IMG/VR virus record: IMGVR_UViG_3300029288_000007 | Span: 27,724 to 91,723 of that record | DNA length: 64,000 bases | Source: a virus | Taxonomy: Duplodnaviria; Caudoviricetes | Strand: one strand, 5' to 3' | Part shown: in pieces, positions 2,468 to 32,544 of the stretch | Layout of the letters: every line of letters starts with the position of its first letter | Position numbering within the stretch: the first letter of the stretch is position 1 | The notes under the pieces: model-generated | The model's input: only the letters and a program-made list of their open reading frames with translations | Database searches by the model: none | Told to the model about the DNA's origin: nothing | Made by a program: the position numbers and the translations under genes

Positions 2468-2498
2468 ATTATACTCCCAAATGCATTTTATCAAAAAT
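2468..2498 (-). promoter_or_regulatory. putative phage promoter (GGAGTATAAT family)
   Basis: TTTTGA-N17-TATAAT with GGGAG before the -10. Confidence 0.65.
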
Positions 2499-17869: not shown

Positions 17870-19045
17870 TTATCTGGCTGCGCGCTCAAGCCTGTCGCTT
17901 TCTTTGGCGCATTCCTTCCATGCGTTGCACTTCTCGCATTCCGGTTTTTCATCAATGTCCTTGCCAAACTCATGGCCAGAAGGGCATTCGTTCCCGGTTG
18001 ACGCCGGAGGAGGCGGAGGAGGCGGAGGAGTGTCTGTTGCCAACGGCGTTTTTGCTTTTTCCTGATTATCTTTGTTTTTCTTTGATTTTATTTCTGCCAA
18101 ACGTCTTTGAAGAATTGCTTCTTCGTCTTCTGGTTCAGCAGCAGGAGGAGCAGTTGTTGCTGCTGGCGGTTCTTCCGTTTTTGCTTTTCCCAAAGAAGCA
18201 GGGATGTCTTCCTTCTTTTCATACTTCGGAGAACGTTTCTCTGACGGCGGCGCTGATGCAGCCTGCTGGACAGCCGCGCCGTTCATCGGGACTCCCCAGA
18301 AAGATTCATATAAACTTGGCATTGTTGGCCAGGCAATCAATTCGTCCAGGGGTTGAGCGGCATCCGCAACTTCGTTTGTAATCGGAGAACGGCGGTCTTC
18401 GAATTTAACGCCAATAAACTTCGTTTTTTCATCAGTTCCCTGTCGCTCAAAGGAAATTGATTTGCCATCTTCAATATCCATATAAGCGATGTAATTTTCC
18501 AAAGAACTCATTTCGCCGGGCAAAGTAGATTTCTTTGAAATAACATCGAGAAACTGTTGCAGCAAATATGAAGAAGTTTCCCAAACTTGGCAACCTGCGC
18601 CCGGGTCTCGGCGGTCAAAAACGTTATAAATCGTGCGCGGCCAATTTGCGTAACGAAGGTTGTCCGTTTCTTCCTTTGTTGCTCCCTTGGCAACCTTTGC
18701 CCGATATTCCTTGCAAACTGGGCAATAACAACCTTTTCCGAAAATTTCTTCTCTCCGTTTAACATCCTTGAAAGTTTGCTCAATGCAAATTATATCTCCG
18801 CCGTCCTGGGCCGCGCCTTTATGTAAGAATATTCTCAAAACATACGCCATTGATTCTGCGGCGATGGGGTCAAATTTTCCCGACAAATAGGCGAGAATAT
18901 CAATCAAATTCGGGCCTTCCTTACACTTAAAAAACTTTGCCTGAATATCAGAACGGAACAAACTCCCTCTCCTTTGATAATGAGTTTGTTCTGTCTCCAT
19001 CCTTTTTTTCATTTCCTCTTTCATGCTACGTCTGCTATCTCTCAT
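17870..19045 (-). CDS. gp32-like single-stranded DNA-binding protein
   Basis: H..C..CPVC zinc site, YNVFDR, Pro/Ala linker, C-terminal Cys domain; AAGGAGG SD before ATG 19045; synteny with RecA. Confidence 0.7.
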   Translation of the reverse strand: MRDSRRSMKEEMKKRMETEQTHYQRRGSLFRSDIQAKFFKCKEGPNLIDILAYLSGKFDPIAAESMAYVLRIFLHKGAAQDGGDIICIEQTFKDVKRREEIFGKGCYCPVCKEYRAKVAKGATKEETDNLRYANWPRTIYNVFDRRDPGAGCQVWETSSYLLQQFLDVISKKSTLPGEMSSLENYIAYMDIEDGKSISFERQGTDEKTKFIGVKFEDRRSPITNEVADAAQPLDELIAWPTMPSLYESFWGVPMNGAAVQQAASAPPSEKRSPKYEKKEDIPASLGKAKTEEPPAATTAPPAAEPEDEEAILQRRLAEIKSKKNKDNQEKAKTPLATDTPPPPPPPPASTGNECPSGHEFGKDIDEKPECEKCNAWKECAKESDRLERAAR

Positions 19046-19202
19046 CTTTCTTTGCCTCCTTACGGTCAAATTTTATTTTTTTGACAAACCATAACTTTGC
19101 TTGAAAATAACTCCTGGCAGCGCCATAAGTTAAAAGCCTCCAAACAACGTATATAAACAAAATAATAAACGGCAAAAACACCAACTTGGTTTCAATCTCC
19201 AT
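19035..19202 (-). CDS. small membrane protein (55 aa, not in ORF track)
   Basis: MEIETKLVFLPFIILFIYVVW... fills the gap; GAGG SD. Confidence 0.55.
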   Translation of the reverse strand: MEIETKLVFLPFIILFIYVVWRLLTYGAARSYFQAKLWFVKKIKFDRKEAKKDER

Positions 19203-19205
19203 TGG

Positions 19206-19712
19206 TCATCCCCTCTTTATTTTTGACCTTAAAATAAGGTCTGCTTTTTCAGATTCTTCATTGATATTATGAACAGACTCCCGATATTGTTCTTTATACC
19301 CATCTGGCATATCTTTGCCAATTTTTTTATCCTTTGACAATTCTTCAAGAGACTTGCCTTTTTCAACCAAAGACCATTTTATTCCGCTTAATATGTTCAC
19401 ACGTTCTTCGGCAATAATCAACCTTGCTGAAACATCTCTATATCTTGGGTCAGCGTGAACTTCCACGTCGCATCTTGTATCTGAGGGAGCTTTCCCGTTT
19501 TCTGTTAATTTCACCCGGGCCTCTTTAAATAAAACGGCCTTTAAAACCTTCTTCTCAAGCCAAATCTCATCTTTTTTTCTTAATTCCCGAGCGAATTGTT
19601 CACACCAATAATTGTAATTCGCAGGCCTTTTTGCCCATTCAGCATCAAGATTATTTCTGTTGATATTTACATCTTCTTGACAATTAAAAACGTTTTCCAT
19701 TCCGTCCGACAT
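19206..19712 (-). CDS. UvsY-like recombination mediator
   Basis: DVNINRNNLDAEW..P..Y, all-helical; position upstream of SSB and RecA. Confidence 0.6.
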   Translation of the reverse strand: MSDGMENVFNCQEDVNINRNNLDAEWAKRPANYNYWCEQFARELRKKDEIWLEKKVLKAVLFKEARVKLTENGKAPSDTRCDVEVHADPRYRDVSARLIIAEERVNILSGIKWSLVEKGKSLEELSKDKKIGKDMPDGYKEQYRESVHNINEESEKADLILRSKIKRG

Positions 19713-19734
19713 TTAAAATTCCTTCCTTAAATTT

Positions 19735-19768
19735 ATTATACTCCCTTTTCCTAATTTCCATCGAAATT
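19735..19768 (-). promoter_or_regulatory. putative phage promoter (GGAGTATAAT family)
   Basis: AATTTCGA...GGGAGTATAAT. Confidence 0.62.
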
Positions 19769-20678
19769 AAGTGACGCTGTAAAAACAATCTTTTGTCAGC
19801 CCGGCCTTGCCAATATACATGTATGAATCCTGAAAGTTTTTAATTAAACCTGCGGCAAGTTCCATATTTTTTGGGTTCGCCGACAACAATACAGAATTCA
19901 TATATCCCAATATTGCCATTCTTACCCTTTCAGGGTCATCTTTCAAGGCTTTTAATATAACAGCAACTTCCGACCATTTCCGCTGGTCTAAAAGAGCGCG
20001 GCATAAATCTATTACTTCTTTGTGAACAGCAGACCGAATCAAAGAGATTGCGTCTTCATCATTTTCAACACCGCGAACAGTATCAAGAGTCACCAATATT
20101 TCTCTTGGAATTCCCTCGCAACTTTCAACAATTGTTTGCCTCACCGTTGGGGAAACCTTGAACCCTTCTTCGTGACAGACCCATTTGATAAGAAATTTCT
20201 GTTCGTCTTCAGTTAATGGCTGAACCTCATAACATTTACAACGGCTCTTCATTGTTGCAGAAACCTTTTGCAACTCAGTAGTGCAAAGGACAAAATAACA
20301 ATGTTGAGGCGGATTTTCCAAAGTCTTTAAAAGGGAGTCCGATGCCGCGCCGCTCAACCGATGACATTCGTCAATAATATAAATTTTAAATTTGCCTCCC
20401 AAAGGAGAATACTGAGCGGCCTCCTTAATCGCCCGGGCATTATCAATGCCTGTATTATCTGCCGCGTCAATCTCACAAAAATCAATTGGAGCAACATTAA
20501 TGTGATTGCCTATCAATCGAGCAATCGTTGTTTTGCCGCATCCTCTCGGGCCGTAAAACAAAAACGTTCTTGACCTTGGAATTGCCGCCAACAAAGATTC
20601 CTTTAAAACCCGATATCCTATCAATTCGTCAAACGTTTTCGGTCTGTACTTTAAATGAAGCTCAACTCTTTCCGCCAT
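19767..20678 (-). CDS. clamp loader (DnaX gamma/tau-like AAA+)
   Basis: KYRPKTFDE, GPRGCGKTT, IIDECH, LLKTLENPP, SRC. Confidence 0.92.
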   Translation of the reverse strand: MAERVELHLKYRPKTFDELIGYRVLKESLLAAIPRSRTFLFYGPRGCGKTTIARLIGNHINVAPIDFCEIDAADNTGIDNARAIKEAAQYSPLGGKFKIYIIDECHRLSGAASDSLLKTLENPPQHCYFVLCTTELQKVSATMKSRCKCYEVQPLTEDEQKFLIKWVCHEEGFKVSPTVRQTIVESCEGIPREILVTLDTVRGVENDEDAISLIRSAVHKEVIDLCRALLDQRKWSEVAVILKALKDDPERVRMAILGYMNSVLLSANPKNMELAAGLIKNFQDSYMYIGKAGLTKDCFYSVT

Positions 20679-23600
20679 TATTTGAATCCTCCCATTGATT
20701 TTATTTTATCTGCAAAACTTCTTATCCCTTCTTCAAAAAGCATTTTATTTTCTGGACGATGCAATACAGCAGAAGGATGCAATCCCCAACAAACCCAAAT
20801 GCCTTTGTTTTCAATCCACTCCATTGAACCAGACAATTTTGTAATTCCTCCATCAATCCCCTTAAAATATTTTAAGGGAGTATTGCCCAAGGCCAAACAC
20901 AACCTCGCATTTGCATTCTTAATCTCTGCATCAAGCCATTTTGAACAAGCTGAAATATGCTCTGCTTTCGGAGTCCTAATATTCCCGGGATAACATTTGC
21001 AAGTATTTGTGACATGGAATTGTCGCCGGGTCAAACCGTATTTAAACAATTCCTTCCATAACAAATCGCCTGCTTTGCCAACAAAACCTTTTCCTTCTTC
21101 ATTTTCGTCCCTCCCCGGAGCTTCTCCAATTATAAAAACATTATAAATTCCGCAAGAGGGCAAAACCGGCTGTTTTGCTTCTGTTCTTAATTGACAATCC
21201 TTGCAATATAAATTTTCAGGATTTCTCCACCGCTTTTGAATAAAATAACATTCTTTTTCTTTTTGTTCTTTATTTGTTATTGTAGAAACATCAAAAGAAA
21301 AATATTTTGAAATATCATCTTTTGGAGGAGACCCATCTGCGCCAATTGCTTCCATCAACTTTCCTATTTTCCCTGTTGGTTTTGCTTTGCCTAAATCAAA
21401 AAAAGCATCAGCGGCAGGTTGCTTATATTTCGAACAGTCTTCCGCCGTTTTTTCGCCAATCCCCTTTACTTCAATAAAAGGAACATAAATATTCCCGTCT
21501 TTAACAGTCCATACTTTCGCGTCTGACACGCCAATCCGGGGCAAAACAACATTCAATCCAACTCTTTGGGCCTCTTTAACAATTTCTTCTTTTTTTTCTG
21601 CTGCAACAAACGTCAAATTGGCACATAAAAATTCAGCCGGGAAATATAATTTCAGCCAAGCGCACCAATATGAAATCATTGCGTATTCAACAGAATGAGA
21701 TTTATTAAAAGAATACCTAGCATGATTCTGAAGCGCCTCCCAAAACTCATCTGCTTCTTCCTTGGAAAACGTTTTGCTCTTTAAACAACCTTCAACAAAG
21801 GCATCCTTGTATGGTTTAAATTCCTTCGCGTCCCTTTTCTTCCCTATGATTTTTCTAATTTTATCGGCGGTGGAATAAGGCAAACCGGCGACAAGATTTA
21901 TAACCTGCATTACCTGTTCCTGATAAACTATAATCCCAAAGGTGTCTTTTGTTATTTCTTCATAAATGGGGTGCTTCTTTTTCCATTTAGTCCCATGCTT
22001 GCGCTTTATAAAATCGGCCGTCATTCCGCTGTCATAAGGGCCAGGCCTTACCAAAGCGACAACGTCCCCCATAGATTCAAAACTTTCAATTCCAATTTGT
22101 TTGACCAATTTTGTTGTTGCCCAAGTATTAAATTGGAAAACGCCAACCGTTTCTCCTCTTGATAACATTTCAAAAACTTGTTTATTATTCAAATCAATAG
22201 ACTCAAAACAAATTTCCTTATTGTGATTCTTTTTAATTAATCGTTTGGCCTCATTCAATATCGACAAAGTGCTCAATCCAAGGATATCCAATTTCATCAA
22301 ACCCATATATTCAGCATCGTCCTTACTCCAATTAACAACTTCTTGGTCCGATCGCACAGCAAGATTTCCCCTTGTCCCTTGAGTCAAATCCTCTGCGGAA
22401 ACAATAAGCGCGGCGGCATGTTGACTACAACCGCGAATTTGACCTTCCAGTCTTATTGCATAATCAACAACAGAAGGGTATTTTTTCGAAAAGGCCGCGC
22501 CTTCCTTTGTTTCCTTGGCAGCCTGCTCAACAGAATTGTTTTCATTATCTTCATCAAATATGGCTTTTGCAAATTCATCCACATCTTTATAAGGAACATC
22601 GAAAACTCTTGAAACGTCCCGTATCACCGCCCGGCCCTTCATTTTCATAAAAGTAGAAACTGAAGCAATATTGTTCTTGCCGTATAATTCTTCCAAGTGT
22701 TGCCTTATCAACGGACGCTTAACATCTTCAAAGTCAATATCCACATCAGGATAATCAATGCGGTTTTCATCAATAAAACGCGAAAAAAGGAGATTATATT
22801 TAATTGGGTCAACATTTGTTATCCCTATAAGATAAGCTATCAAGCTGCCGCCAACAGAACCTCGGCCCGGGCCGGTCATAATATCGTTCTTTTTGCACCA
22901 CTGGATAAGCTCATGAACCAATAAAAAATAACGAACAAATTTCTTATTGCAAATCAATTCAAACTCTTCCTTGCAACGGTCATAATATTGACCTGACAAC
23001 GGCCCGCAAAATATTTTTTTGTAGCCATCTTCAAAAAGAAATTCCAAATGAGCTTCTTCTGCAACAGAAGAATCCAGTCCTGATATTTTAGGAAGCCAAA
23101 CATCCTTTCTTTTAATTTCAAAAGAAGAACACTTTTCCGCAACTTCCATTGTATTCCTCAATGCCATTAACCGGGCCGCTTTTGTTAATTGCCCCTGCTC
23201 CAAAAAGGCTTGAGCCATTTCTTCCTCTGAACGCAGATGCAAACCGCCAATTTCAAATTTGAATCGGTCTTTCTCGTTCCATTTTGCCTTGGTTTGTATT
23301 GCTAAAAGAACCTCATGTAAATTAGCATCTTCTGATTTAATATAATGACAATCGTTTGTGGCAACTAAAGGAAAATCAAATTCGTCTTTCCAATCAAGAC
23401 AAATTTTATTAATAATTTTTTGTTGCTCATAATCATGAGGCATTATTTCCAAATAAAAGTCATCTGGATTTTTCTGATTCAATTGGATTAAAAAATCCCG
23501 GCCATTTTGCAAGGCCAAAGGACTTTTCGAACACCCAGTCAAAAAAACTAATCCTTCAGAAAATTCAAGGATGGTTTTGAAATCGGTTCTCGGCCTGTAA

Positions 23601-23932
23601 TAAAAACCTTGTAAATTTGCCCTTGTCAATATTCTACAAAGATTTTGAAAACCAATATCATTTTTTATCAAGGCCGTCATATGGAAACGACGCTCAATCT
23701 TATCTTTGATTAAGCAATCCGGGACAACATAAAGCTCGCAACCAAAAACTGGTTTAATGCCCGCTTTCTTCGCCGCAGATTGAAAATCTAAAAAGCCATC
23801 TATATTTCCATGATTCGTAAGCGCCAAATGAGATTGTCCCAACTCTTTTGCGCGCTTTAAATAATCTTCTGCCTTACCAAAACCATCAAGAATAGAAAAC
23901 TCATTATGAACGTGAAGATGACAAATCATCAA
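20678..23932 (-). CDS. dnaE: DNA polymerase III alpha (DnaE-type) with C-terminal family-4 uracil-DNA glycosylase domain
   Basis: PHP HLHVH, GRGS, PDVDID, KLDILGL, YSFNKSH; then CKDC, GEAPG, FVGKAG, TNTCKC, HPS. Confidence 0.92.
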   Translation of the reverse strand: MMICHLHVHNEFSILDGFGKAEDYLKRAKELGQSHLALTNHGNIDGFLDFQSAAKKAGIKPVFGCELYVVPDCLIKDKIERRFHMTALIKNDIGFQNLCRILTRANLQGFYYRPRTDFKTILEFSEGLVFLTGCSKSPLALQNGRDFLIQLNQKNPDDFYLEIMPHDYEQQKIINKICLDWKDEFDFPLVATNDCHYIKSEDANLHEVLLAIQTKAKWNEKDRFKFEIGGLHLRSEEEMAQAFLEQGQLTKAARLMALRNTMEVAEKCSSFEIKRKDVWLPKISGLDSSVAEEAHLEFLFEDGYKKIFCGPLSGQYYDRCKEEFELICNKKFVRYFLLVHELIQWCKKNDIMTGPGRGSVGGSLIAYLIGITNVDPIKYNLLFSRFIDENRIDYPDVDIDFEDVKRPLIRQHLEELYGKNNIASVSTFMKMKGRAVIRDVSRVFDVPYKDVDEFAKAIFDEDNENNSVEQAAKETKEGAAFSKKYPSVVDYAIRLEGQIRGCSQHAAALIVSAEDLTQGTRGNLAVRSDQEVVNWSKDDAEYMGLMKLDILGLSTLSILNEAKRLIKKNHNKEICFESIDLNNKQVFEMLSRGETVGVFQFNTWATTKLVKQIGIESFESMGDVVALVRPGPYDSGMTADFIKRKHGTKWKKKHPIYEEITKDTFGIIVYQEQVMQVINLVAGLPYSTADKIRKIIGKKRDAKEFKPYKDAFVEGCLKSKTFSKEEADEFWEALQNHARYSFNKSHSVEYAMISYWCAWLKLYFPAEFLCANLTFVAAEKKEEIVKEAQRVGLNVVLPRIGVSDAKVWTVKDGNIYVPFIEVKGIGEKTAEDCSKYKQPAADAFFDLGKAKPTGKIGKLMEAIGADGSPPKDDISKYFSFDVSTITNKEQKEKECYFIQKRWRNPENLYCKDCQLRTEAKQPVLPSCGIYNVFIIGEAPGRDENEEGKGFVGKAGDLLWKELFKYGLTRRQFHVTNTCKCYPGNIRTPKAEHISACSKWLDAEIKNANARLCLALGNTPLKYFKGIDGGITKLSGSMEWIENKGIWVCWGLHPSAVLHRPENKMLFEEGIRSFADKIKSMGGFK

Positions 23933-23942
23933 GAATCTCCTT

Positions 23943-24986
23943 TTAAACGACCAGGGCTAAAATGCTTTCAAAATCGCCTTCTTTTATTAACAGATAACGA
24001 TTTTCCTTCAAATAAAAATCCCGGCCCAGCGACAACATTCTGTTTAAGAGCTTCGGATTGATTTTTAAAGTAACGTTTTTTGGGAAAGACCATTTGTCGT
24101 CCTTCAAAATTTTCTCTTTTATTTCTCCGTATTGTTTGGCGCCGGTGACCAATAAATTATCTTTGGCATCCAAAGTTAAATCAATATATTCGGATCCCTC
24201 ATTTGAGAATGTCAAAATTGAAGCCATCTCGATAGACTGAGATAACTTCTCCGGGAAAGAATATTTCTCTCCAAGAACAGATGGGTCAACCGAACAAAAC
24301 TCCCTGATTGCCTGGCGAGGGAAATCAATCTTGACTTGCCGCATGCTAAATTGCAACCCTGTCTTTGACTTGAAATGAATCCAGGCTTCTCCAACCGAAA
24401 ATTCATCAACGTCTTCAAACTTTATCAACTCTGTAACCGCGCCGATGGGTAATACTATTTCCTTTTTGAGAGAACGGACTTCCATTGAGTAAAACCCGGC
24501 CCTGAATCTGTCGCTGGCTGCTAATCCATCCCGGGCAACCGAAACGCCGCAAAGAGAAGAATATGCCTTATCTGTTGTGGCAAAGCTGGAAGTAAGGCGC
24601 AAAGCACTGATAAAATTCGCCGGGAGTTTGACCCATTTAATCCCGTCCAAAGCAAGATTATCAACCAAAGCAAGAATGGAAGAACTGTCTGACGAAACCA
24701 TTTTCAAGGTGGTTTTGCCTCCTGACAATTGTAACTTGCCGTCATCCAGCATAATCATCTTGATTTCATCACTTTCAATCCGGGAAACAACTTTGAAAAA
24801 TTCCTGCGCCTTAACCAAACATTTGATTCCTGAATCAAAAGGATAACTGGCCGAAATTTCATTGTTAAACGTTTTGACCCATTTATCATCAAACATAAAA
24901 GAATCAGCTCCTTCAAGAAGGGCATTCTTTTCTTCCACGCCAGGCATAACTTTTCTCAAAGCTTCCAACAATTCAGTTCTCTTCAT
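23943..24986 (-). CDS. beta sliding clamp (DnaN-like)
   Basis: 347 aa, ASDRFR motif, adjacent to DnaE and clamp loader. Confidence 0.78.
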   Translation of the reverse strand: MKRTELLEALRKVMPGVEEKNALLEGADSFMFDDKWVKTFNNEISASYPFDSGIKCLVKAQEFFKVVSRIESDEIKMIMLDDGKLQLSGGKTTLKMVSSDSSSILALVDNLALDGIKWVKLPANFISALRLTSSFATTDKAYSSLCGVSVARDGLAASDRFRAGFYSMEVRSLKKEIVLPIGAVTELIKFEDVDEFSVGEAWIHFKSKTGLQFSMRQVKIDFPRQAIREFCSVDPSVLGEKYSFPEKLSQSIEMASILTFSNEGSEYIDLTLDAKDNLLVTGAKQYGEIKEKILKDDKWSFPKNVTLKINPKLLNRMLSLGRDFYLKENRYLLIKEGDFESILALVV

Positions 24987-25014
24987 AATATTTCTCCTTC
25001 AGTAAAATTTTAAA

Positions 25015-26475
25015 TTATTTTATAACTTCCCCAACAAATTTCTTAGAAAAATTCTTATCCCAATCCCGGTATTCATAAACAACATCTTGATTTTGGTCAA
25101 CCCCAACCGGGTGCATCACGCCGGCAAAATAAATATAAGGACTCCGAGGATGATATGGGTCATTCCACTTGTTGCGCATAGCATCGCCAAAGGTAAAATA
25201 CTTGCGGACTCTTTTGGAATGCCAACCGCCACAATTGTACATTTCGACCGCCTTAACCTTATGGGCCCATTCTGGAGCCCAATCCAAATAATTTACTTGG
25301 CGACGAATGCCTCTGTCAAAATCCCTTTTCATTTCATAAACAACATTTGTCAATTGACGGCGACTCCAATGCCCAAAAATTGGGTCATCTGGCAAAATGC
25401 CGCAGCAACAACCGGTATCGTTGAATTCTTTGAAATGAGGGTCGCTACAAGCAAAAACCATTCCCAGTTTATGAGCATAATCTCTGACTTTCGCGGTCAT
25501 GTCAAATTTGTAATCTCGACTCCCTCGACGACATGCCTCAACAGACTTGCTCATCGCATTCCATTTGTCCCCAAACTTGACGTCCCCCATTGCCTTAAAC
25601 ATATGGTGATACATTATCTTCTGTCGCGTTGTTGGCGCTGATTCCAAAAAGATAAATTCAAAGCTTACTGCTTTTGCCCCGGCGTCAGCCGCCTTGTCCA
25701 ACAACCTTTTCCATCCGTTGTTATAATCGGACAACCCGGGCAAGAAGGGCCGGAAACGCACGCTACAAGGGTGACCAGCCTTTGAATAAGCTTTCATTGC
25801 GGCAAAACGTTCCGTTGCGTTCGGCGCTCCGACATCAACCGATGTCAACAAATCGTCATCTGCAGAAATGATACTAAAAGCGAACCAAAATTTTTCAGGA
25901 GTCAAATGAAACAAATCTCGGTATTGTTTAAGCATCATCGTCCTTGCTCCTTTTGTTCCTACTCGAACAGGAACATTATATTTCTGGAACAAAGGAATTG
26001 CCTTTAACAACCACCCACGATGACTTTCAATTTCGTCCAAAGGATCTCCAAGAGCGCCAAGTTGAACTGGACAACCTTGATTTAACAAAGGATACATTGT
26101 TTTCGCAATGCCTCCAAGTTCGCGATTCAAAAACTTCTCCAAATGGCCAATCTTCCATTCAGAATACAACGTCCCTTTTTCAAACAACTTCCTGATTTTA
26201 TCAGGATTACGGTCAGGCGCTCGCATAAGGTTATTGGCAAAACAATAACTGCAACCGTAACTGCAACCTGAATGGCTGTCAATAGAAATGGGTAATGCGC
26301 AATCCATTGCGTCACTTGTAAAACGCACTCCGTTATAGTCGTCCGGCATTGGCATGTTCAAAATTTCTTCCCGGCGCTCATCAGAGACATAAGGAAGGCA
26401 TACTCCCTTCTCGCACAATTCGGCCATCCTTGAAGGACAACCTTTACAAACATAATGCAATTCTTTATTATTCAT
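25015..26475 (-). CDS. radical SAM enzyme, SPL-like (paralog 3)
   Basis: CSYGCSYC, LGALGDP, GTK, GAPNATERF, RFRPFLPG, C-terminal CCC; extra N-terminal Cys cluster. Confidence 0.88.
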   Translation of the reverse strand: MNNKELHYVCKGCPSRMAELCEKGVCLPYVSDERREEILNMPMPDDYNGVRFTSDAMDCALPISIDSHSGCSYGCSYCFANNLMRAPDRNPDKIRKLFEKGTLYSEWKIGHLEKFLNRELGGIAKTMYPLLNQGCPVQLGALGDPLDEIESHRGWLLKAIPLFQKYNVPVRVGTKGARTMMLKQYRDLFHLTPEKFWFAFSIISADDDLLTSVDVGAPNATERFAAMKAYSKAGHPCSVRFRPFLPGLSDYNNGWKRLLDKAADAGAKAVSFEFIFLESAPTTRQKIMYHHMFKAMGDVKFGDKWNAMSKSVEACRRGSRDYKFDMTAKVRDYAHKLGMVFACSDPHFKEFNDTGCCCGILPDDPIFGHWSRRQLTNVVYEMKRDFDRGIRRQVNYLDWAPEWAHKVKAVEMYNCGGWHSKRVRKYFTFGDAMRNKWNDPYHPRSPYIYFAGVMHPVGVDQNQDVVYEYRDWDKNFSKKFVGEVIK

Positions 26476-26729
26476 TTGTCTGCCTTTCTAATCAATTCCG
26501 CCAGCGCGACAGAATTCATATCTGGATGAGATTTAACATGAGGATTTGACTTTGACAACTTTGATAGAACCAAATCATAATCCTTTTCATCGTCGAAATA
26601 AAAAATCAAAAACTTGCGCAACCCATTATCTGTTTTGCCTTGAATATCAGCAGGAAACGAAAAAAGGCCCGATTGCGCTTTCACATTTTTTTCGCCGTTG
26701 TCTATACCAGAATAATCATCTTTTGCCAT
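26472..26729 (-). CDS. hypothetical protein (QSGLF clamp-binding-like motif)
   Basis: 85 aa, GGAGGAG SD, ATGA-coupled to radical SAM gene. Confidence 0.65.
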   Translation of the reverse strand: MAKDDYSGIDNGEKNVKAQSGLFSFPADIQGKTDNGLRKFLIFYFDDEKDYDLVLSKLSKSNPHVKSHPDMNSVALAELIRKADK

Positions 26730-26745
26730 AACTCCTCCAAATTAT

Positions 26746-27507
26746 TTATTCCCAAGAATAAATTTTATTTATTTTGACTGGATTCAATTTTGTTTTGAAA
26801 CGATATAAATTTTCATCATCCAAACAACCACCGTCGTTGACCAATTTATTCTTATTTAAAATTTCCGGGTCAGTATAAAAAAGAAGTCTCATATATTCGC
26901 TTAAAAATTGCCCGGGTTTACAAAAGCAATATCGGAAATTGACATACATATAGTTCTCATCCCAAATATTCAACCCATAAATATTGCCGTACTGGTCCAA
27001 TAAAACTTTTCCATTCTCGCATTCGTTCAAGTAATTCAAAATAACTTTATCATCATAAATTACAACATCGTCCGGTTTGCCTTCCAACCACTGGCAAAGG
27101 ATATCTGGCAACGCGACAATTAAATTGCCATCGGTCTGTTTAAGATTAATATAACTCATTTTTTTATCAGGATTCCGATTGACAAATTTGCGGGAATTTT
27201 TTCTGAAGGTCTGAAAATCTCCTCCAGATAAATCAGAAAAGCGCTTTGGGTCGTAAATAAAATTATAATCCAAAAACTTTCCTTCCTTGCTCCCAAGACC
27301 GGCCCATGCTCCCGTGGACAATTTAAACATTTCTCCAGTCGCAAAATCAATCAAAGGCAACATCAAAAAGCCATCTCCATCTAAAACGCCAACAAGGCCG
27401 CCTTCTTCAAGATTTTCCCAACCGGCCTTCTCAAAATATTCCTCAGAACACCAGAAATTTGGCTCAATATTAAGCTTTTGGAGAGTCTCAAGATATTTAT
27501 TTCCCAT
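26746..27507 (-). CDS. DUF2156/MprF-C-like GNAT-fold protein (putative aminoacyl-tRNA-dependent transferase)
   Basis: NFIYDPKRFSDLSGGDFQTFRKNSRKF and VNDGGCLDDENLYRFKTKLNP match my recollection of the DUF2156 pattern DYIY..L..L.G.K....RN..N.F / N...DLG..GLR..K..Y.P. Confidence 0.62.
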   Translation of the reverse strand: MGNKYLETLQKLNIEPNFWCSEEYFEKAGWENLEEGGLVGVLDGDGFLMLPLIDFATGEMFKLSTGAWAGLGSKEGKFLDYNFIYDPKRFSDLSGGDFQTFRKNSRKFVNRNPDKKMSYINLKQTDGNLIVALPDILCQWLEGKPDDVVIYDDKVILNYLNECENGKVLLDQYGNIYGLNIWDENYMYVNFRYCFCKPGQFLSEYMRLLFYTDPEILNKNKLVNDGGCLDDENLYRFKTKLNPVKINKIYSWE

Positions 27508-27628
27508 CTAAATCCAATCCCTTTTGGCCGTCTGATTTTCTTATTGCGTTCCTTTTTGCCTTGCCGCTTTTAATTCTGTCAATCAACTTCTTTGACACTT
27601 GGCCGCCTTTTCTTGATTTGCCGCCCAT
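27497..27628 (-). CDS. 43-aa basic Gly/Lys/Arg peptide (not in ORF track)
   Basis: MGGKSRKGGQVSKKLIDRIKSGKAKRNAIRKSDGQKGLDLDGK, GGAGG SD, overlaps next start. Confidence 0.6.
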   Translation of the reverse strand: MGGKSRKGGQVSKKLIDRIKSGKAKRNAIRKSDGQKGLDLDGK

Positions 27629-27673
27629 TTTTATTTCCTCCATATTTTGATTGAGCCAGATATTGCCCGGCCC

Positions 27674-28384
27674 TTATTGGACAACTTTGAAATCTCCCAT
27701 TTCGTCAAATAAGCACCAACTCAAAATTCCTGTTAGTCCGGTAATCTTTCCCTTCACAATAAAATAATTCATTTCCGGGACAAAAGAAAAGGTCAACTCC
27801 CTGTCATAACTGAAAAGGGCATCAAGGTCAACCGTTCTCAGGCCCATCGGAGAAAACGGAGCCAACTTGTCAACATCAATTAAGTCAAGCCCGGCTTTAT
27901 CCTTTGTAATTTCTATTACTGTTCCGGAAAAAATATCCCTTTGAATTACTTTGAGACCATTATCATAATGTATTTCCACATGGGACAAATCGTCTTGTAG
28001 AAGTCCCATTATTTCTCTGCGCAATGTGAAAATTGACGTCGTTTTCTTCCGACTGTAACGATAATACATCGTGGAGATTGAATCAAAATCTAACGACTTA
28101 TTTGACCCGCATTTCTTTTTACGAACATAGCCATCTGCCGTCGTTTTAAAAACGACAGAACCTCCCTCAACATAAAAATTCGAGGAATCATAATCATTCG
28201 CGTCAAAAACAATTTTTTCCTTGAACTCCGGGCAAACTTTCGGCAACACAAAACTCAACAAAATTGTTTTGTCAAAATTAACAATAAAAATTTCCCTTTC
28301 GTTACAAAGAATTGTATTCTTCATTTTCCCGGCCTGGTCCAACGATGCGGCATATTGAAAAATATTTTCAAGTTCCTTTTCCAT
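27674..28384 (-). CDS. hypothetical alpha/beta protein (possibly clamp-like)
   Basis: 236 aa within the radical SAM cassette. Confidence 0.65.
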   Translation of the reverse strand: MEKELENIFQYAASLDQAGKMKNTILCNEREIFIVNFDKTILLSFVLPKVCPEFKEKIVFDANDYDSSNFYVEGGSVVFKTTADGYVRKKKCGSNKSLDFDSISTMYYRYSRKKTTSIFTLRREIMGLLQDDLSHVEIHYDNGLKVIQRDIFSGTVIEITKDKAGLDLIDVDKLAPFSPMGLRTVDLDALFSYDRELTFSFVPEMNYFIVKGKITGLTGILSWCLFDEMGDFKVVQ

Positions 28385-28613
28385 CTTCCTTCTCCCTTTT
28401 TCTTCTATTTTCTTCCATTTTTTTATTATGACAAGGAATACAAAGATTTCGCCCTTCGCAATCCTCTAATGTTTTTGCTTTTGCGTAAAATTCATTCACT
28501 GGTTTCACTTTCCCGCAAGAACCTTTCCCCGTGCACTCCTTCTGGGCAATGCCGCCCGGGTACAAAATACAATCCAAAGGAGCAGGCTTAATAAAATTCT
28601 TTTTCTCCGTCAT
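28368..28613 (-). CDS. small zinc-finger protein
   Basis: KEC..CGKVKPVNEFY...CIPC. Confidence 0.6.
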   Translation of the reverse strand: MTEKKNFIKPAPLDCILYPGGIAQKECTGKGSCGKVKPVNEFYAKAKTLEDCEGRNLCIPCHNKKMEENRRKREKEDGKGT

Positions 28614-30010
28614 ATCAATTTCTCCAACATTTCCTGACGAAAATCCTTACTGGAATCAAAAGTCCAAAGCAAACCGTCCTTGTCCTGTCCAACCGGGATT
28701 AAACCTGCCGCATGGTCCAAACTGAAAGAAATATCTCCTGACAAATTCCACAACTGTTTAACCTCATTTTTAAATGCAGGAGAAAGAAAACCATTATGGC
28801 TTTCAACGTGCTTTTCAAAATCGCCCCAACTTGTCTTCCGGCCCTCTCCGCCTGCAATAAATCTTATCGCGCTTGTAGTATTACCTTGACAAAATTTCCC
28901 CATGCCAAATAAATCACTTACAGAACAACAAACATTGTCATCGTTAATTGGAACGTTGCCAGCGTCAAAAGTCGAACACTGAATCCCGGCCTGTTGAAAA
29001 TAATCCATATATTTTCCTAACAACAAAGAGCCCAACCACTGGGCCTTGGACATAACTTCGTACATCCGCTCAAAATCATATCCCATCCGGGCAAAATTAT
29101 TTTTCACGCCTGTTCCGGCTGCCGAATAACTATAAGTATCAAATGTCATGTGCTTTATTCCAGCCATGACCATATGGTCAATGTAATCGTCAACCATCCC
29201 TTTCTCATCATTCAAAAAAACCATAAATGGTTCAATCCTGGCAACAACCCGAATACCGCCATCGACTAAATTCTTACAGGCGCGCATGCGTTCTTTAAAT
29301 TTCGGAGCGCCGGGCTCAAGATTTTTCAAAAAAGTTTCGTTCGATGAAATCATTGTAACGTGAACCGCCGCGCCAGCTTTATTGCGGGCAAAAGCCTTGA
29401 CATATTCATCGTCGCCAACCAAATCTGATTTTGTGTTGACCATAACCGGGTAATCATTATCGGCGAGATAATTTAACATTGACAATGCGACTTTATGTTT
29501 TGTTTCTATTGGGCGAACAAAATCCTCAAATCTGATTCCTAATCTTATTGGCATTTCCATAGAAATTGCCTTTGGAACCTCAGCCAGTTCTTTTTTGGAA
29601 CCGCGATACTTAAAAAGAGAGTCAAGTTCCGCCTTAAAAAAATCAGGACTGCAAACCCTCATCCCCATTCCTTTTGTATTATCAAAAAACGAAGAATACA
29701 AACTGGCCCGGGCATAATCAGCAAAACAATACTTACAATGATAAGGACACATCTTTGAATCATAAATATCAATATTCAAAGACATTGGACAAGCCTGAGA
29801 GCGCAGACTAACTTCAATAAAAGATTTCATTTCTTCCAAGTTTAAAAGGCGCTCTTTTTTTAACAAATCCCCTTTCAAAATATCAAATTGAAAATAATTC
29901 GTTTTCCGGCCCTTTTCTTTTACAAGACTTTGCTTTTCCTTTTGTTCTATAAAAACAGAAAGTCTTGGTATCAACTTTGAAACTATTTTGCGCAATTCCC
30001 AATAATTCAT
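28610..30010 (-). CDS. radical SAM enzyme, SPL-like (paralog 2)
   Basis: CPYHCKYC, NTKS, LEPGAPKFKER, RIEPF, C-terminal CC; TAATG coupling gives start 30010. Confidence 0.88.
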   Translation of the reverse strand: MNYWELRKIVSKLIPRLSVFIEQKEKQSLVKEKGRKTNYFQFDILKGDLLKKERLLNLEEMKSFIEVSLRSQACPMSLNIDIYDSKMCPYHCKYCFADYARASLYSSFFDNTKGMGMRVCSPDFFKAELDSLFKYRGSKKELAEVPKAISMEMPIRLGIRFEDFVRPIETKHKVALSMLNYLADNDYPVMVNTKSDLVGDDEYVKAFARNKAGAAVHVTMISSNETFLKNLEPGAPKFKERMRACKNLVDGGIRVVARIEPFMVFLNDEKGMVDDYIDHMVMAGIKHMTFDTYSYSAAGTGVKNNFARMGYDFERMYEVMSKAQWLGSLLLGKYMDYFQQAGIQCSTFDAGNVPINDDNVCCSVSDLFGMGKFCQGNTTSAIRFIAGGEGRKTSWGDFEKHVESHNGFLSPAFKNEVKQLWNLSGDISFSLDHAAGLIPVGQDKDGLLWTFDSSKDFRQEMLEKLI

Positions 30011-30846
30011 TAAGCACCTATATTCCAAAATAAAATCGGTTTTTTAAATCTAATATTATTATACTCCGTTTCCTTATAATCCATTAAAAATTTATATGCC
30101 TTTAAATCGTAATATGGATTGCAAGGGAATGGAGCAAAAAAATCAACCTTTTGAGTGTATTCATAACCCAAATCAACCATCTGGAAAAAATCATCATTTA
30201 AAACCGCGCCTGCCATTCCCAAAATTAAAGATTTCTTTTGTCTGATTTTCTTTGATGGACGACAAAGAACTCCAATCACCTGCGCTTTTGATTTTGTCTT
30301 CAATACTCCTTTTAAAACTCCTGCCGCCATGGTCCCGCTGCCAACACACATTACAATGGTATTAAATTTTTTACATTTACTCAAAGCAAATTCAAGATAA
30401 ACCTCTCTTATTGTTTCTATGAAAGGAAGGCCAAGAGGAAGCATTACTGCGCCCGGGCCGTATTGTTCTCTTAATATATTTTTTGATATGTGATAATTCA
30501 CTTTTGCCATCCCGGCAGGGATATCAATCATCTTCGCGCCAAACTCAATCCACTTTGAACGATGTAAAGTCAAAACCTCATTCGGCGTTTTATAAATAGG
30601 ATTAAAAATAACAGCAGTCATCCCCAATTGCTTTGCCATCCAAGCAACACCCCATCCAGCCATTGAGATACTGGTTTCAGTGTAACCAATTGTTTCCACG
30701 CCTTTTGCCTTTAACGCAAGCAAGCGCGAATATAATCCGCGAACCTTAGCAAAGGGAGGCCCGGGAGGAAAACAGGCTAAATCCTCTCTTTTGACGTAAA
30801 TGTCGCCATACTTCTCAATTGGAGTATTGTTCTGTATCAATTCCAC
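30010..30846 (-). CDS. fold-type II PLP-dependent enzyme (ACC deaminase/D-cysteine desulfhydrase-like)
   Basis: IYVKREDL, AKVRGL (Schiff-base Lys), VGSGTMAAG, PYYDLKA, LFWNIG. Confidence 0.85.
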   Translation of the reverse strand: MELIQNNTPIEKYGDIYVKREDLACFPPGPPFAKVRGLYSRLLALKAKGVETIGYTETSISMAGWGVAWMAKQLGMTAVIFNPIYKTPNEVLTLHRSKWIEFGAKMIDIPAGMAKVNYHISKNILREQYGPGAVMLPLGLPFIETIREVYLEFALSKCKKFNTIVMCVGSGTMAAGVLKGVLKTKSKAQVIGVLCRPSKKIRQKKSLILGMAGAVLNDDFFQMVDLGYEYTQKVDFFAPFPCNPYYDLKAYKFLMDYKETEYNNIRFKKPILFWNIGA

Positions 30847-31882
30847 AATCCTTTAAAGAATAAACTTTTTCGTTTTTGCCTAAAATCGCAGCCAGGCCCT
30901 CATGATAATCTCCAACGCCATCCCAACAAAACTTCATAGTTTCCTCAAAAGAATTCCCCGCCAACAACATTCTTTTAACGGTCATCACATTAAATGTCGT
31001 TGGATTAGGGACATCAATCCCGCAACAAGTATTTGTCTCTTCGCAATAACTTCCTGAATTAACAAAATCCGGGCAGCCCAAAATCACGCCGTTCTGTTTT
31101 GCAATATCAATCAATTTCTGTAAAATTGGCTTCCAGTGTTCATCCTGATTATAATGCCATATTTTTTCAATATCAATCCCAATATTGTGCAACCGCTTAG
31201 CAACAAAATCATTAAAATGAAAATTGTAAGTATTGTAATTTTTTATTCCCCACGACTTCAATCTTTTAACGATATCCTCAAATTGCTTAATGGTATGATA
31301 CCCAGGGATAAAAGGTTCTCCATTAACGGCGACAGAAACTCCCCTTGCCCTCAAATAACACAAAAAATCAATTCTTTCCTGAACAGGGGTTGTTCTGGTG
31401 CGTTCCAAGATTTCCCAATCATTCTCCGCGCCGGGAGAAATTATCGGTTGAACAAAAATCAAATGTTTATTTTCAATAATAAAATCTCTGTGTGGAATCA
31501 AATTCTCGGTGAACATTGTTTGGATTAAAAAAGACCAATTCAAACCAACAAGAATTTCCAAAACCCGGGCTGATACTTTATGCTCAAGTTCTGCTGGTTG
31601 GAATGGGTCTGCCTTATTCCCAAAACGGATTGTTTTCTTCTGTCTCAAAGCCCAAGACAATGGCGACTTCGGCTCTTTGTTTTTTAAACCATTGATTAAC
31701 GTTCTTTCAAAATTCTCAACGTCCAATGGGCGCAAATCTTTCCCCCAAACATGATTTAATCGTCTCAAATAACAATGATGACAATTCGCTTGACAATTCC
31801 AATAACTGTCAAGAGAAAGACTCAAAGGACAATAAAGAGAGTCTCCGCGAATAGTTAAACCATTTTGAAGATTTTTACTCAA
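30815..31882 (-). CDS. radical SAM enzyme, SPL-like (paralog 1)
   Basis: CQANCHHC, GNKADPFQPAE, EPFIPG, GCPD...TCCG; probable TTG start 31882 after GAGGA. Confidence 0.88.
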   Translation of the reverse strand: MSKNLQNGLTIRGDSLYCPLSLSLDSYWNCQANCHHCYLRRLNHVWGKDLRPLDVENFERTLINGLKNKEPKSPLSWALRQKKTIRFGNKADPFQPAELEHKVSARVLEILVGLNWSFLIQTMFTENLIPHRDFIIENKHLIFVQPIISPGAENDWEILERTRTTPVQERIDFLCYLRARGVSVAVNGEPFIPGYHTIKQFEDIVKRLKSWGIKNYNTYNFHFNDFVAKRLHNIGIDIEKIWHYNQDEHWKPILQKLIDIAKQNGVILGCPDFVNSGSYCEETNTCCGIDVPNPTTFNVMTVKRMLLAGNSFEETMKFCWDGVGDYHEGLAAILGKNEKVYSLKDCGIDTEQYSN

Positions 31883-31901
31883 AAAACATTCCTCAACAAA
31901 A

Positions 31902-31939
31902 TTAATGAAGGGCAGCAGGGGCAAACCGCCCTTCATTAA
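31902..31939 (-). terminator. intrinsic terminator/attenuator hairpin
   Basis: 12-bp stem TTAATGAAGGGC/GCCCTTCATTAA followed by U-rich run. Confidence 0.65.
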
Positions 31940-31965
31940 CAAATTTTAAAATTCTGGCCGAAAGA

Positions 31966-32544
31966 TTATTTAATGCAAACTTTTCCGTCGTCCAGACGTA
32001 TGGCGCCGAAACCCTTCAACACAGACAACGCGACATTCGTTGCCCACTTAGATTCCTTCTCATTGGACTTGCCGCCTTCCTTGGCGTAAGCTTCATCTGC
32101 CGCTTTTACAATAGCAGCAACTTCAACGCCGGACGTATTCAACGAAGAAAGAATTGTCTCGCCTGTAACTTCCAGCCGGTTCTTTTTGGCCGGTTTTGGC
32201 GCTTTGGGTTCTTTGGCCGGTTTTGGCGCTTTGGGTTCTTTGGCCGGTTTTGGCGCTTTGGGTTCTTTGGTTGCTTTGGACTTCTCGGGAGTCTTTTCAA
32301 CAACCTCGGCCACGGTGATTTTCTGATAATAAACGGCCACACTCTCCGGCCCTTTCCAGTTCCCCTGGTCGTCGTCCGGGATGGACAACACGCCTTTTAT
32401 AAAATCGTCAACGATTTCCTGTTTGCTTTTCCCGACAGTAACAATCTTGGGAGTCAATAACTCGCAAGCATTGAGGTCTTTAACTGCCGCCGCCAGTTCT
32501 TTGAACTGAATTTTTCCAATTTCAATTGTTTTAACCATCTTCAT
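31966..32544 (-). CDS. histone-H1-like repeat DNA-binding protein
   Basis: (KEPKAPKPA)x3 linker between two small domains; own promoter and terminator. Confidence 0.65.
   Translation of the reverse strand: MKMVKTIEIGKIQFKELAAAVKDLNACELLTPKIVTVGKSKQEIVDDFIKGVLSIPDDDQGNWKGPESVAVYYQKITVAEVVEKTPEKSKATKEPKAPKPAKEPKAPKPAKEPKAPKPAKKNRLEVTGETILSSLNTSGVEVAAIVKAADEAYAKEGGKSNEKESKWATNVALSVLKGFGAIRLDDGKVCIK
32185..32270. repeat. 27-bp coding tandem repeat x3
   Basis: tttggccggttttggcgctttgggttc repeated three times. Confidence 0.9.

Follow-up and report, generated by a model that had tools for sequence, protein, structure and literature searches.

Background

The 5-NedU pathway of phage M6 (Yuavirus) uses the dUMP hydroxymethylase gp58, the kinase gp54 and the glycine:DNA transferase gp51, and is finished by the radical SAM isomerase gp53 and the PLP decarboxylase gp52, a glycinyl-thymine decarboxylase (PMC8989533). 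In PaMx11 (Abidjanvirus) the pathway to 5-AcNmdU comprises the transferase gp46, the flavin lyase gp47, the acetyltransferase gp48 and the kinase gp49 (PMC8989533). The amino-acid thymidine hypermodifications that we found described in the literature all begin with hydroxymethyluracil taking the place of thymine throughout the genome. A published survey used the kinase gene to look for such pathways (PMC8989533), and the module reported here would have escaped it. Moreover, tRNA-to-DNA transfer of amino acids, which the first-pass annotation of our locus proposed as part of a different entry chemistry, has a precedent: Mom of phage Mu is a GNAT that uses Gly-tRNA to place glycine on N6-adenine of dsDNA (PMC13219725).

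We report on a nine-gene cassette in the complete genome (91.7 kb) of an uncultured landfill phage, where it lies in a window of 64,000 nucleotides. The cassette combines M6-type tailoring enzymes with no known entry enzyme, in support of the candidate DNA hypermodification pathway suggested in the first-pass annotation. Specifically, conserved co-occurrence of the genes, set beforehand as a test, was seen in many phages, and a search for hmU genes in the remainder of the genome turned up neither a canonical kinase nor a canonical transferase; the suggestion thus survived two of the three refutation tests proposed with it. Judging from gene content and predicted folds, we lean towards reading the cassette as a post-replicative DNA hypermodification module that would modify the phage's own DNA by attaching an amino acid (glycine being the most likely) to the 5-methyl group of a pyrimidine, namely thymine, with no prior formation of 5-hydroxymethyluracil.

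Results

Organization of the cassette

All nine open reading frames of the run are real and lie on the minus strand, and their coordinates, order, strand and junctions agree with the earlier description of nine coupled genes between the helicase and the clamp/DnaE genes (Table 1). The junctions range from -32 to +45 nt with overlap at six of the eight, indicating tight coupling, and the run is flanked by DnaB (plus a 192-aa basic protein) on one side and clamp/DnaE on the other. A 59.8-kb contig from the probable source run covers the whole cassette with zero differences. For rSAM1 the most likely start is the TTG at 31882, behind a GAGGA site and the 16-bp hairpin, and for rSAM2 most likely the ATG at 30010, which gives 466 aa and matches the protein-collection entry. 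A promoter scan gave a signal near chance level. No tRNA gene was predicted in the genome at the default threshold, with calls only at a relaxed threshold; related loci carry scattered tRNAs of many kinds.

Table 1. Genes and signals of the cassette and its borders (positions refer to the window)
Feature	Position	Strand	Remark
Replicative clamp gene	23943..24986	-	downstream slot border, 51/51 loci
rSAM3, 486 aa	25015..26475	-	optional add-on; own family
85-aa protein, rSAM3 partner	26472..26729	-	co-travels with rSAM3
DUF2156/MprF/FemX-type double-GNAT protein, 253 aa	26746..27507	-	predicted aminoacyl-tRNA-dependent transferase; core
Basic peptide with N-terminal MGGKSRK, 43 aa	27497..27628	-	core; candidate aminoacyl carrier or adaptor
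Private sliding-clamp-fold protein, 236 aa	27674..28384	-	predicted fold; core
Zinc-ribbon-like protein, 81 aa	28368..28613	-	incidental
rSAM2, 466 aa, SPL-like radical SAM	28610..30010	-	survey anchor
PLP fold-type II enzyme, M6 gp52 homologue	30010..30846	-	swappable tailoring slot
rSAM1, 355 aa, SPL-like radical SAM	30815..31882	-	core position; profile match to M6 gp53
16-bp terminator-like hairpin	31901..31940	-	immediately before rSAM1 ribosome-binding site
Lys/Glu-rich protein, 192 aa	31966..32544	-	upstream slot border; outside cassette

Core and optional genes

The survey was anchored on rSAM2 (525 homologues) and covered 51 non-redundant loci. Two radical SAMs, the private PCNA-fold clamp and the DUF2156/MprF-fold transferase form a core present in 51/51 loci, with rSAM1 at the core position in 44 and a sister clade standing in for it in the other seven. 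The module amounts to five core genes and one tailoring gene, and the tailoring enzyme was not recognised in four loci. The cassette occurs with PolA in 38/51 loci and with DnaE in 12/51. Some of the genes listed earlier drop out. The zinc finger, found in 3/51 loci, is incidental and was rejected as a pathway part, and a triplicate radical SAM as the defining feature of the pathway is not supported: rSAM3 and the 85-aa gene are present in only 4/51 loci and the pair also occurs without the cassette. The idea that three radical SAMs act in one pathway was therefore rejected, and by its distribution the pair is an independent add-on. Single-protein scans of viral contigs with rSAM2, the PLP enzyme and the clamp gave no matches, and no cultured phage with the core was found.

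Known entry enzymes

The window had been noted to show no kinase, amino acid:DNA transferase or dUMP hydroxymethylase, and the same is true of the whole genome. M6 and ViI, where included in these searches as positive controls, were matched. The amino acid:DNA transferase (aGPT-Pplase2/ADDT) was found in 0/30 carrier records (M6 control, E 2e-48), and the same search picks up divergent transferases in related phages; gp51 had no tblastn match, and gp54 was found in none of the 30 carrier records. Neither the 5-hmdU DNA kinase nor its helical partner (PF18748 and PF18723) was detected in the 13 near-complete carriers (M6 and ViI controls positive), where the matches to ADDT, HMUDK_HMUD1, HMUDK_hel and gp54 number zero. 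A dUMP hydroxymethylase of the thymidylate synthase family is missing from the complete genome (M6 control positive), while 3/30 carrier records have a match to that family. Finally, aGPT-Pplase3 and Tet_JBP matched nowhere, in searches run without a positive control.

Radical SAM enzymes

Spore photoproduct lyase (SPL) is a precedent for action on DNA, abstracting hydrogen at a thymine lesion. The CX3CX2C motif is present in rSAM1, rSAM2 and rSAM3 and invariant across the families of all three, whose best family matches are SPL-like (PA0069/Rv2578c and PHROG 13321), not SPASM. Although the SPL and PA0069/Rv2578c families are the nearest for all three, the scores stay far below the cut-offs, with 12.9-17.5 bits against at least 400 for spore photoproduct lyase (TIGR04070/TIGR03886) and at most 59.5 bits against 360 for the SPL and PA0069/Rv2578c families. 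Unlike members of these families, the cassette enzymes carry extra Cys and Cys-Cys motifs and sit in a biosynthetic gene context. All the radical SAM clades share with M6 gp53 an extra Cys before CX3CX2C and a C-terminal Cys, and rSAM1 matches gp53 in hhalign (prob 96.6, E 6.5e-10), fitting its profile better than does rSAM2, the other core enzyme. Because identities to gp53 are 17-24% over partial matches and gp53 forms a long branch of unsure placement in our quick tree, orthology to gp53 is not established.

PLP enzyme and the tailoring slot

The PLP enzyme has a PALP fold and is a full-length homologue of M6 gp52 (36.9% identity over 99%, E 8e-41), with profile E-values of 5e-93 to gp52 and 5e-9 to ViI gp226; its Lys34 aligns with gp52 Lys36, the predicted aldimine lysine. 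Its earlier assignment to the pathway holds in so far as it is an M6-type tailoring homologue, but it is optional, being present in 28/51 loci and missing from approximately 45%. The slot is otherwise occupied by a PaMx11 gp47 homologue, a methyltransferase fold or a reductase. In some relatives the flavoprotein (L009) matches, at 28% identity and with E 3e-23, the gene that sits between PaMx11_46 and the acetyltransferase, and rSAM1 is retained in loci with the gp47-like enzyme, though the substrate of gp47 is the un-isomerised product. By homology, gp52 and gp47, the two characterised enzymes with activity on glycinyl-thymine in DNA, thus both have counterparts in this slot.

In common with M6, the cassette lies among replication genes and pairs a full-length gp52 homologue, aldimine Lys included, with a gp53-family radical SAM sharing the extra cysteines. 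It differs in having two core radical SAMs, remote from gp53, in lacking homologues of gp51, gp54, gp55 and gp58, and in having a clamp, an invariant peptide and an aminoacyl-tRNA-type transferase of its own. With PaMx11 it shares the logic of one entry step followed by exchangeable finishing enzymes, the gp47 homologue replacing the PLP enzyme in some relatives; however, the PaMx11 entry enzymes are missing, and the window carries the PLP version, not the flavin version.

A private clamp, a double-GNAT protein and an invariant peptide

The 236-aa protein, previously listed without function, is predicted to have the two-domain sliding-clamp fold (PCNA/9-1-1/gp45; Z 15.4, rmsd 3.8, 206 aligned; pLDDT 88.8, two of the helices being short), and the first-pass annotation thus overlooked a dedicated clamp. 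It is a second clamp-type gene next to the replicative clamp, is present in 51/51 loci and belongs to a family of 218 clusters at 50% identity. It is not related to M6 gp55.

For the 253-aa protein the earlier DUF2156-like reading agrees with the predicted DUF2156/MprF double-GNAT fold (pLDDT 96.2; Z 21.0 to 2HQY, rmsd 3.0, 244 aligned), and the top fold matches that follow 2HQY consist entirely of aminoacyl-tRNA transferases (MprF Z 14.7, Sbb17 12.5, FemX 12.4). It shares the whole-chain fold with the DUF2156/MprF C-domain, FemX and Sbb17 (2HQY, 4V36, 4II9, 9WQX; Z 11-15 to the characterised enzymes), together with what may be the same C-terminal Phe-Lys and basic helix, but differs in being soluble, having no membrane domain and falling under the Pfam cut-off (PF09924, 16.1 bits against a gathering threshold of 27.5; some homologues carry a precomputed hit). 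Phe237-Lys238 and Arg102-Lys103 are invariant in 109 homologues, and the former would correspond to Phe304/Lys305 of FemX (PMC9351520), an equivalence suggested by motif position, not by residue-level superposition. There is no hit to the Mom family (PF25680), and Mom is absent among the fold matches listed.

The 43-aa product, recorded before simply as a basic peptide, turned out to be an invariant core component: the N-terminus MGGKSRK and Leu15 are conserved at 77/77 loci, and the peptide occurs only in core-bearing loci. Its N-terminus is invariant while synonymous sites vary freely, with both Ser codon families used. The median net charge of the peptide is +9, and the clamp and the transferase are acidic (-5). 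A literature search covering non-subscription papers gave no description of the module or of the peptide motif.

Slot context and genome composition

Sister phages were reached via the clamp loader. Among the 24 sister loci that have the same replisome and no cassette, a phage TGT-like gene occupies the slot in 20 and FolE, QueC or QueE in 16, and Mom is found in the same slot at one rSAM3 locus; by gene content, sister phages hence keep 7-deazaguanine or Mom genes where the carriers have the cassette. The Lys/Glu-rich protein forms the upstream border in carriers and sister phages alike. The genome strongly avoids GATC (O/E 0.11) and also avoids 6-mer palindromes (mean 0.67); as this avoidance persists, restriction protection is at best partial. 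Comparison of di-, tri- and tetranucleotides between carriers and deazaguanine sisters, in which G+C and kinship are confounding factors, did not point clearly to any base as the modified one.

Discussion

Sequence, predicted folds and gene order show which parts make up the module and how they fold, that they are linked, that their slot is one also used by known DNA-modification genes, and that the canonical entry enzymes are missing. DNA, in whatever form, is very probably the target of the module; the base and the amino acid we infer. In the reading that we lean towards, the private clamp likely holds the enzymes on newly made DNA, and the DUF2156 enzyme quite probably takes an amino acid from aminoacyl-tRNA. 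The amino acid would be placed directly on the base or on the invariant peptide (e.g. esterified to Ser5 or amide-linked to Lys4/Lys7), a carrier role that we consider unlikely. An SPL/gp53-family radical SAM, probably rSAM2, might strip hydrogen from the base methyl, a step on which we stand slightly to the doubtful side, to give the reactive methylene that M6 reaches via hydroxymethylase, kinase and transferase. More tentatively, rSAM1 might carry out a gp53-like N-to-C shift or a C-C coupling. The PLP enzyme would then remove CO2 as gp52 does, leaving an aminoethyl-type base, and other phages would finish with the gp47-like flavoenzyme, the reductase or the methyltransferase. In its most specific form, which we regard as improbable, the tRNA-dependent transferase would load glycine on the 43-residue carrier and the clamp-tethered radical SAMs would activate the methyl group of thymine and join the glycine to it, with neither oxygen nor nucleotide replacement; sister enzymes would then do without oxygen the work of TET/JBP, or that of hydroxymethylase plus kinase.

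Mu Mom is, like the prediction for the 253-aa protein, a GNAT-superfamily enzyme that uses a charged tRNA for DNA modification, and its glycine transfer to N6-adenine in dsDNA (PMC13219725), the Mom gene in the slot of a sister phage and the pairing of a basic peptide with an acidic clamp and transferase are all consistent with entry at another base. The DUF2156 enzyme would then use aminoacyl-tRNA directly to acylate adenine or cytosine of the DNA at an exocyclic amine, which would again be DNA hypermodification though not at thymine; the radical SAMs and tailoring enzymes would rearrange and trim the product, and the peptide would be an adaptor or DNA-binding subunit only. This is distinctly improbable, since the transferase matches the MprF/FemX double-GNAT clan, a gp52-type decarboxylase would find no free carboxyl on amide-linked glycine, and a glycine-methylpyrimidine link is what the homologues of gp52 and of gp47 indicate. 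Moreover, Mom is a single enzyme without radical chemistry, whereas the 253-aa protein is a double GNAT always accompanied by two radical SAMs, a clamp and a peptide.

That the MGGKSRK peptide is itself the final substrate, aminoacylated from tRNA, cross-linked by radical SAMs and trimmed in RiPP-like fashion to act on host or replisome, appears very improbable. An invariant peptide next to radical SAMs, its free synonymous change and its confinement to core-bearing loci would fit, as would the acylation of peptides or small molecules by FemX, ATE1 and Sbb17-type enzymes; however, every locus has a dedicated clamp, the known homologues of the tailoring enzymes act on DNA, the radical SAMs are SPL/gp53-type and not SPASM-type, the slot otherwise holds DNA-modification genes, and neither peptidase nor exporter genes are found clustered with the core.

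The position among polymerase genes, the SPL-family matches and the source annotation of the proteins as 'DNA repair photolyase' could also point to enzymes that supply the phage polymerase with a modified dNTP or to SPL-like lesion repair at the fork. We give this little credence, as the cassette accompanies PolA as well as DnaE, the genes clustering with it include neither a nucleotide kinase nor a dNTPase, and repair needs neither an aminoacyl transferase nor swappable tailoring enzymes. A known hmU pathway whose entry enzymes have diverged beyond detection or come from the host, for which unannotated genes in the genome, the clade-3 transferase family search lacking a positive control and the three thymidylate-synthase-family matches could be cited, is hardly credible given the zero counts in 13 near-complete carriers with M6 and ViI controls positive and an ADDT search that does detect divergent transferases in related phages.

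If the thymine-directed reading is correct, hundreds of uncultured phages (to judge by the rSAM2 homologues and clamp clusters) would install such bases by a different start, radical SAM chemistry would build on an unactivated base in DNA, and the use of charged tRNA in DNA modification would extend beyond Mom, with possible tools for labelling ordinary DNA; the peptide-carrier form would moreover mean that DNA can be modified by way of a carrier peptide and that radical SAM enzymes carry out a further, new reaction on DNA.

Finally, rSAM3 and the 85-aa protein would form a separate plug-in making a second, independent change. Comparison of the 85-aa protein with the small partner of the rSAM3 sister clade gave a best E of 0.027, which does not establish homology, and no thymidylate-synthase-type gene was found in the three near-complete records of that clade. 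The neighbours of the sister clade include transferases dependent on hydroxymethyl bases: its members adjoin TAGT glycosyltransferases, amino acid:DNA transferases and kinases, lying upstream of TAGT-cluster glycosyltransferases in 9/17 loci and with an amino acid:DNA transferase and a P-loop kinase-like gene in two, an observation that bears on the relatives of rSAM3 and not on rSAM2.

The cassette and its genomic setting

We judge the module described here (the cassette, nine genes in this genome) to be a real, widespread and undescribed predicted variant of phage DNA hypermodification, and its entry step is probably new. The virus record comprises 91,723 bases with direct terminal repeats and its completeness is rated 100%; the window runs from its position 27724 to 91723. 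Moreover, positions 19000-32214 are spanned with zero differences by one 59.8-kb contig from the best-matching sequencing run, a landfill metagenome that is probably the source of the record, and hence the region is neither an assembly artefact nor a piece of a fragment. The first-pass annotation placed nine genes between the helicase and the clamp/polymerase genes, and this is borne out: all nine are on the minus strand, with overlaps at 6 of the 8 gene junctions. The cassette is bordered by a 192-aa Lys/Glu-rich protein (after DnaB) on one side and the replicative clamp on the other; this place is referred to as the slot.

Genes of the cassette, with positions in the window and predicted identity
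Gene	Position	Strand	Assignment
rSAM1	30815-31882	-	SPL-like radical SAM
PLP enzyme	30010-30846	-	M6 gp52 homologue
rSAM2	28610-30010	-	SPL-like radical SAM
Zinc ribbon	28368-28613	-	
236-aa protein	27674-28384	-	sliding-clamp fold
Peptide (MGGKSRK)	27497-27628	-	
253-aa protein	26746-27507	-	DUF2156-type tandem GNAT fold
85-aa protein	26472-26729	-	rSAM3 partner
rSAM3	25015-26475	-	SPL-like radical SAM

The 192-aa protein (window 31966-32544) carries KAPKPAKE-type repeats and is kept just before the slot whatever the slot contains. A 16-bp terminator-like hairpin (window 31901-31940) overlaps the stretch immediately preceding the ribosome-binding site of rSAM1 and may tune cassette expression.

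Conservation across loci

Scanning with an rSAM2 alignment yielded 165 loci. All come from uncultured sources; five sit in bacterial bins and resemble phage contigs in their gene content. Conservation was counted in 51 dereplicated loci with full flanks, including the present locus. The clamp-fold protein, the transferase and the replicative clamp are each present in 51/51, as is a second radical SAM, which is rSAM1 in 44 loci and a sister clade together with DUF362 in 7; the gene-neighbourhood survey proposed earlier thus gave conserved co-occurrence, with the core in 51/51 loci. The three radical SAMs had been regarded as one set; rSAM3, with the 85-aa gene, is found in only 4 of the 51 loci. 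The zinc ribbon is present in 3/51, and the tailoring genes vary: PLP enzyme (28/51), methyltransferase-fold protein (15/51), aldo-keto reductase (9/51) and flavoprotein (1/51). Of the 51 loci, 38 have PolA as their polymerase and 12 have DnaE. At eight surveyed loci (L122:6717-9635, L141, L014, L031, L064, L091, L116 and L158) the sister radical SAM and DUF362 replace rSAM1 and the PLP enzyme; some loci of this type have a further glycosyltransferase-like gene, and the peptide motif is unchanged.

By direct search, MGGKSRK lies between the clamp-fold and transferase genes in 77/77 non-redundant loci. Its codons vary freely, and Ser5 is drawn from both serine codon families, which indicates that selection acts on the peptide. 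In an independent DNA-pattern scan, 64 of the 80 matches listed are inside the cassette, 3 further listed matches have a transferase approximately 2 kb downstream, and the remaining 13 are without the extended motif. The peptide was not found in 31 loci of the rSAM3-related sets or in 24 cassette-free sister loci. By eye, short Gly-Leu/Phe motifs ending many peptides and some radical SAMs look like clamp-docking tails. The peptide may serve as a carrier, a substrate or an adaptor.

Predicted functions of the cassette proteins

The three radical SAMs share 22-24% pairwise identity and all match SPL-like families with scores far under the family cut-offs; the rSAM1 profile matches M6 gp53 with a probability of 96.6, and the rSAM2 profile does so with 70. 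An extra Cys before CX3CX2C and a C-terminal Cys are common to all radical SAM clades and gp53, while the C-terminal motif is Cys-Cys in the cassette proteins and Cys-His in gp53. Since gp53 holds approximately 9 Fe (PMC8989533), these extra cysteines may, judging from the sequences, bind a second cluster.

The model of the 253-aa protein (pLDDT 96) shows the DUF2156 type of tandem GNAT fold (2HQY, Z 21.0), and the next fold matches, MprF, Sbb17 and FemX, are all aminoacyl-tRNA transferases. Its Phe237-Lys238 pair is invariant among 109 homologues and is, by motif position, the putative equivalent of FemX Phe304/Lys305 (PMC9351520). The 236-aa protein is predicted to adopt a sliding-clamp fold, with Z scores of 15.4 to 9-1-1 and 14.0 to T4 gp45, and belongs to a closed family of 218 clusters; carrier phages therefore encode a clamp-type protein in addition to the replicative clamp.

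The PLP enzyme is homologous to M6 gp52 over its full length (36.9% identity, E 8e-41), with Lys34 aligned to gp52 Lys36. A profile built from 45 PLP enzymes of such cassettes gives E 5e-93 on gp52 versus 5e-9 on ViI gp226. M6 gp52 decarboxylates C-alpha-glycinyl-thymine in DNA (PMC8989533). A homologue of the tailoring flavoprotein is encoded at the gp47 position in PaMx11-like phages, and N-alpha-glycinyl-thymine is the substrate of PaMx11 gp47 (PMC8989533). Homologues of gp52 and gp47, two enzymes known to act on glycinyl-thymine DNA, thus share a single tailoring position, and on this the case for a glycine-pyrimidine intermediate chiefly rests.

The slot in sister phages

Sister phages, reached via the clamp loader, keep the order DnaB, basic protein, slot, clamp, polymerase and loader. 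Among 24 cassette-free sister loci, three of which are near-copies, 20 have a TGT-like phage gene in the slot and 16 have FolE, QueC or QueE. The TGT-like gene, which matches the PaMx25 tRNA-ribosyltransferase at 37%, is presumably of the DpdA type. One locus has a Mom gene in the slot. Exclusion is not strict, as a TGT-like gene is also found in two cassette loci. It is in the slot that these phages carry their DNA-modification genes. In L292 (1-5415), L296 and L328, all sister phages, 7-deazaguanine and glycosyltransferase-like genes lie together in the slot, which possibly encodes glycosylated deazaguanine variants.

rSAM3 and its sister clade

rSAM3 is a family of its own, and is found with its 85-aa partner directly upstream in four loci without the cassette. 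In L391 (7672-10677) an 85-aa-type partner and rSAM3 lie beside a Mom gene with the rest of the cassette missing; a PAPS-reductase gene is nearby in L391 and L394. A sister clade (quick-tree support 94, approximately 30% identity to rSAM3) is preceded by a small gene of its own and, in many cases, accompanied by another gene of 240-280 aa, taken for a clamp by appearance only. L348 (610-4809) and L366-L390 have this radical SAM and its small partner in the same slot, mostly without a thymidylate-synthase-type gene.

At 9/17 loci the sister-clade radical SAM is followed by TAGT-cluster glycosyltransferases, and in L378 (11795-13974) and L387 (10050-12760) by an amino acid:DNA transferase and a P-loop kinase-like gene. 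TAGT glycosyltransferases and amino acid:DNA transferases need a hydroxymethyl-pyrimidine, and a thymidylate-synthase-type gene was not found in three near-complete sister-clade records or the L378 terminal-repeat record; a Tet_JBP search that had no positive control gave no match. The simplest inference from these neighbours is an oxygen-independent activation of pyrimidine methyl groups in DNA by radical SAMs of this family, and the sister-clade enzyme is a candidate oxygen-independent base hydroxylase; for rSAM2 the argument is indirect.

Entry step, proposed route and alternatives

The first-pass annotation saw no kinase, amino acid:DNA transferase or dUMP hydroxymethylase in the window, and the search proposed beforehand extends this to the whole genome, where no homologue of M6 gp51, gp54, gp55 or gp58 was found. 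Among 30 carrier records the amino acid:DNA transferase family (ADDT) and gp54 were each found in none, and two kinase-related families in 0/13 near-complete carriers. The present genome has no thymidylate-synthase-family gene, which was found in 3/30 carriers. M6 and ViI, the positive controls, were detected wherever included; the known entry route is therefore absent. The cassette would work like the M6 and PaMx11 pathways, but it is not a member of them, because their defining entry enzymes were looked for and not found.

In the route we propose, clamp-tethered machinery would act on DNA after replication, radical chemistry would couple a tRNA-derived amino acid, probably glycine, to the methyl group of thymine, and optional finishing enzymes would act after coupling. 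Where the PLP enzyme takes part, the pathway might end in 5-aminoethyl-uracil, which is already known, or in a relative; the base is therefore not necessarily new, although the route would be. Counted against this reading are the large distance from gp53 to the cassette radical SAMs, the retention of rSAM1 beside the gp47 homologue, the persisting avoidance of GATC and palindromes, and word statistics that point to no particular base.

Among the alternatives, Mom-like acylation of A or C, Mom being one precedent for tRNA-dependent DNA modification (PMC13219725), is unlikely. We give a low probability to modification of a peptide, and consider a role in nucleotide synthesis or repair quite improbable; that canonical enzymes are present but hidden is very improbable. 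No description of the module was found in the open-access literature searched, and its core was not found in any cultured phage.

Other features of the genome

The genome as a whole strongly avoids GATC (O/E 0.11) and shows a mild enrichment of CCGG (1.36); avoidance of GATC is seen in 11/49 carrier loci and is thus not tied to the cassette. By inspection, the portal-terminase interval just before the window (genome 15095-27385) holds nucleotide-sugar-like genes, i.e., epimerases, a DegT-type aminotransferase, an acetyltransferase and dehydrogenases, and a glycosyltransferase follows the capsid genes (genome 1209-2492). The DnaE polymerase (window 20678-23932) has a C-terminal family-4 uracil-DNA-glycosylase-like domain, and relatives have Pfam UDG on DnaE or PolA. 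Finally, a DUF7178 gene (window 2498-3169) belongs to a family that two related phages also carry inside their replication block, and a NADAR domain gene (window 10607-11023) adjoins an exonuclease and metallophosphoesterases.
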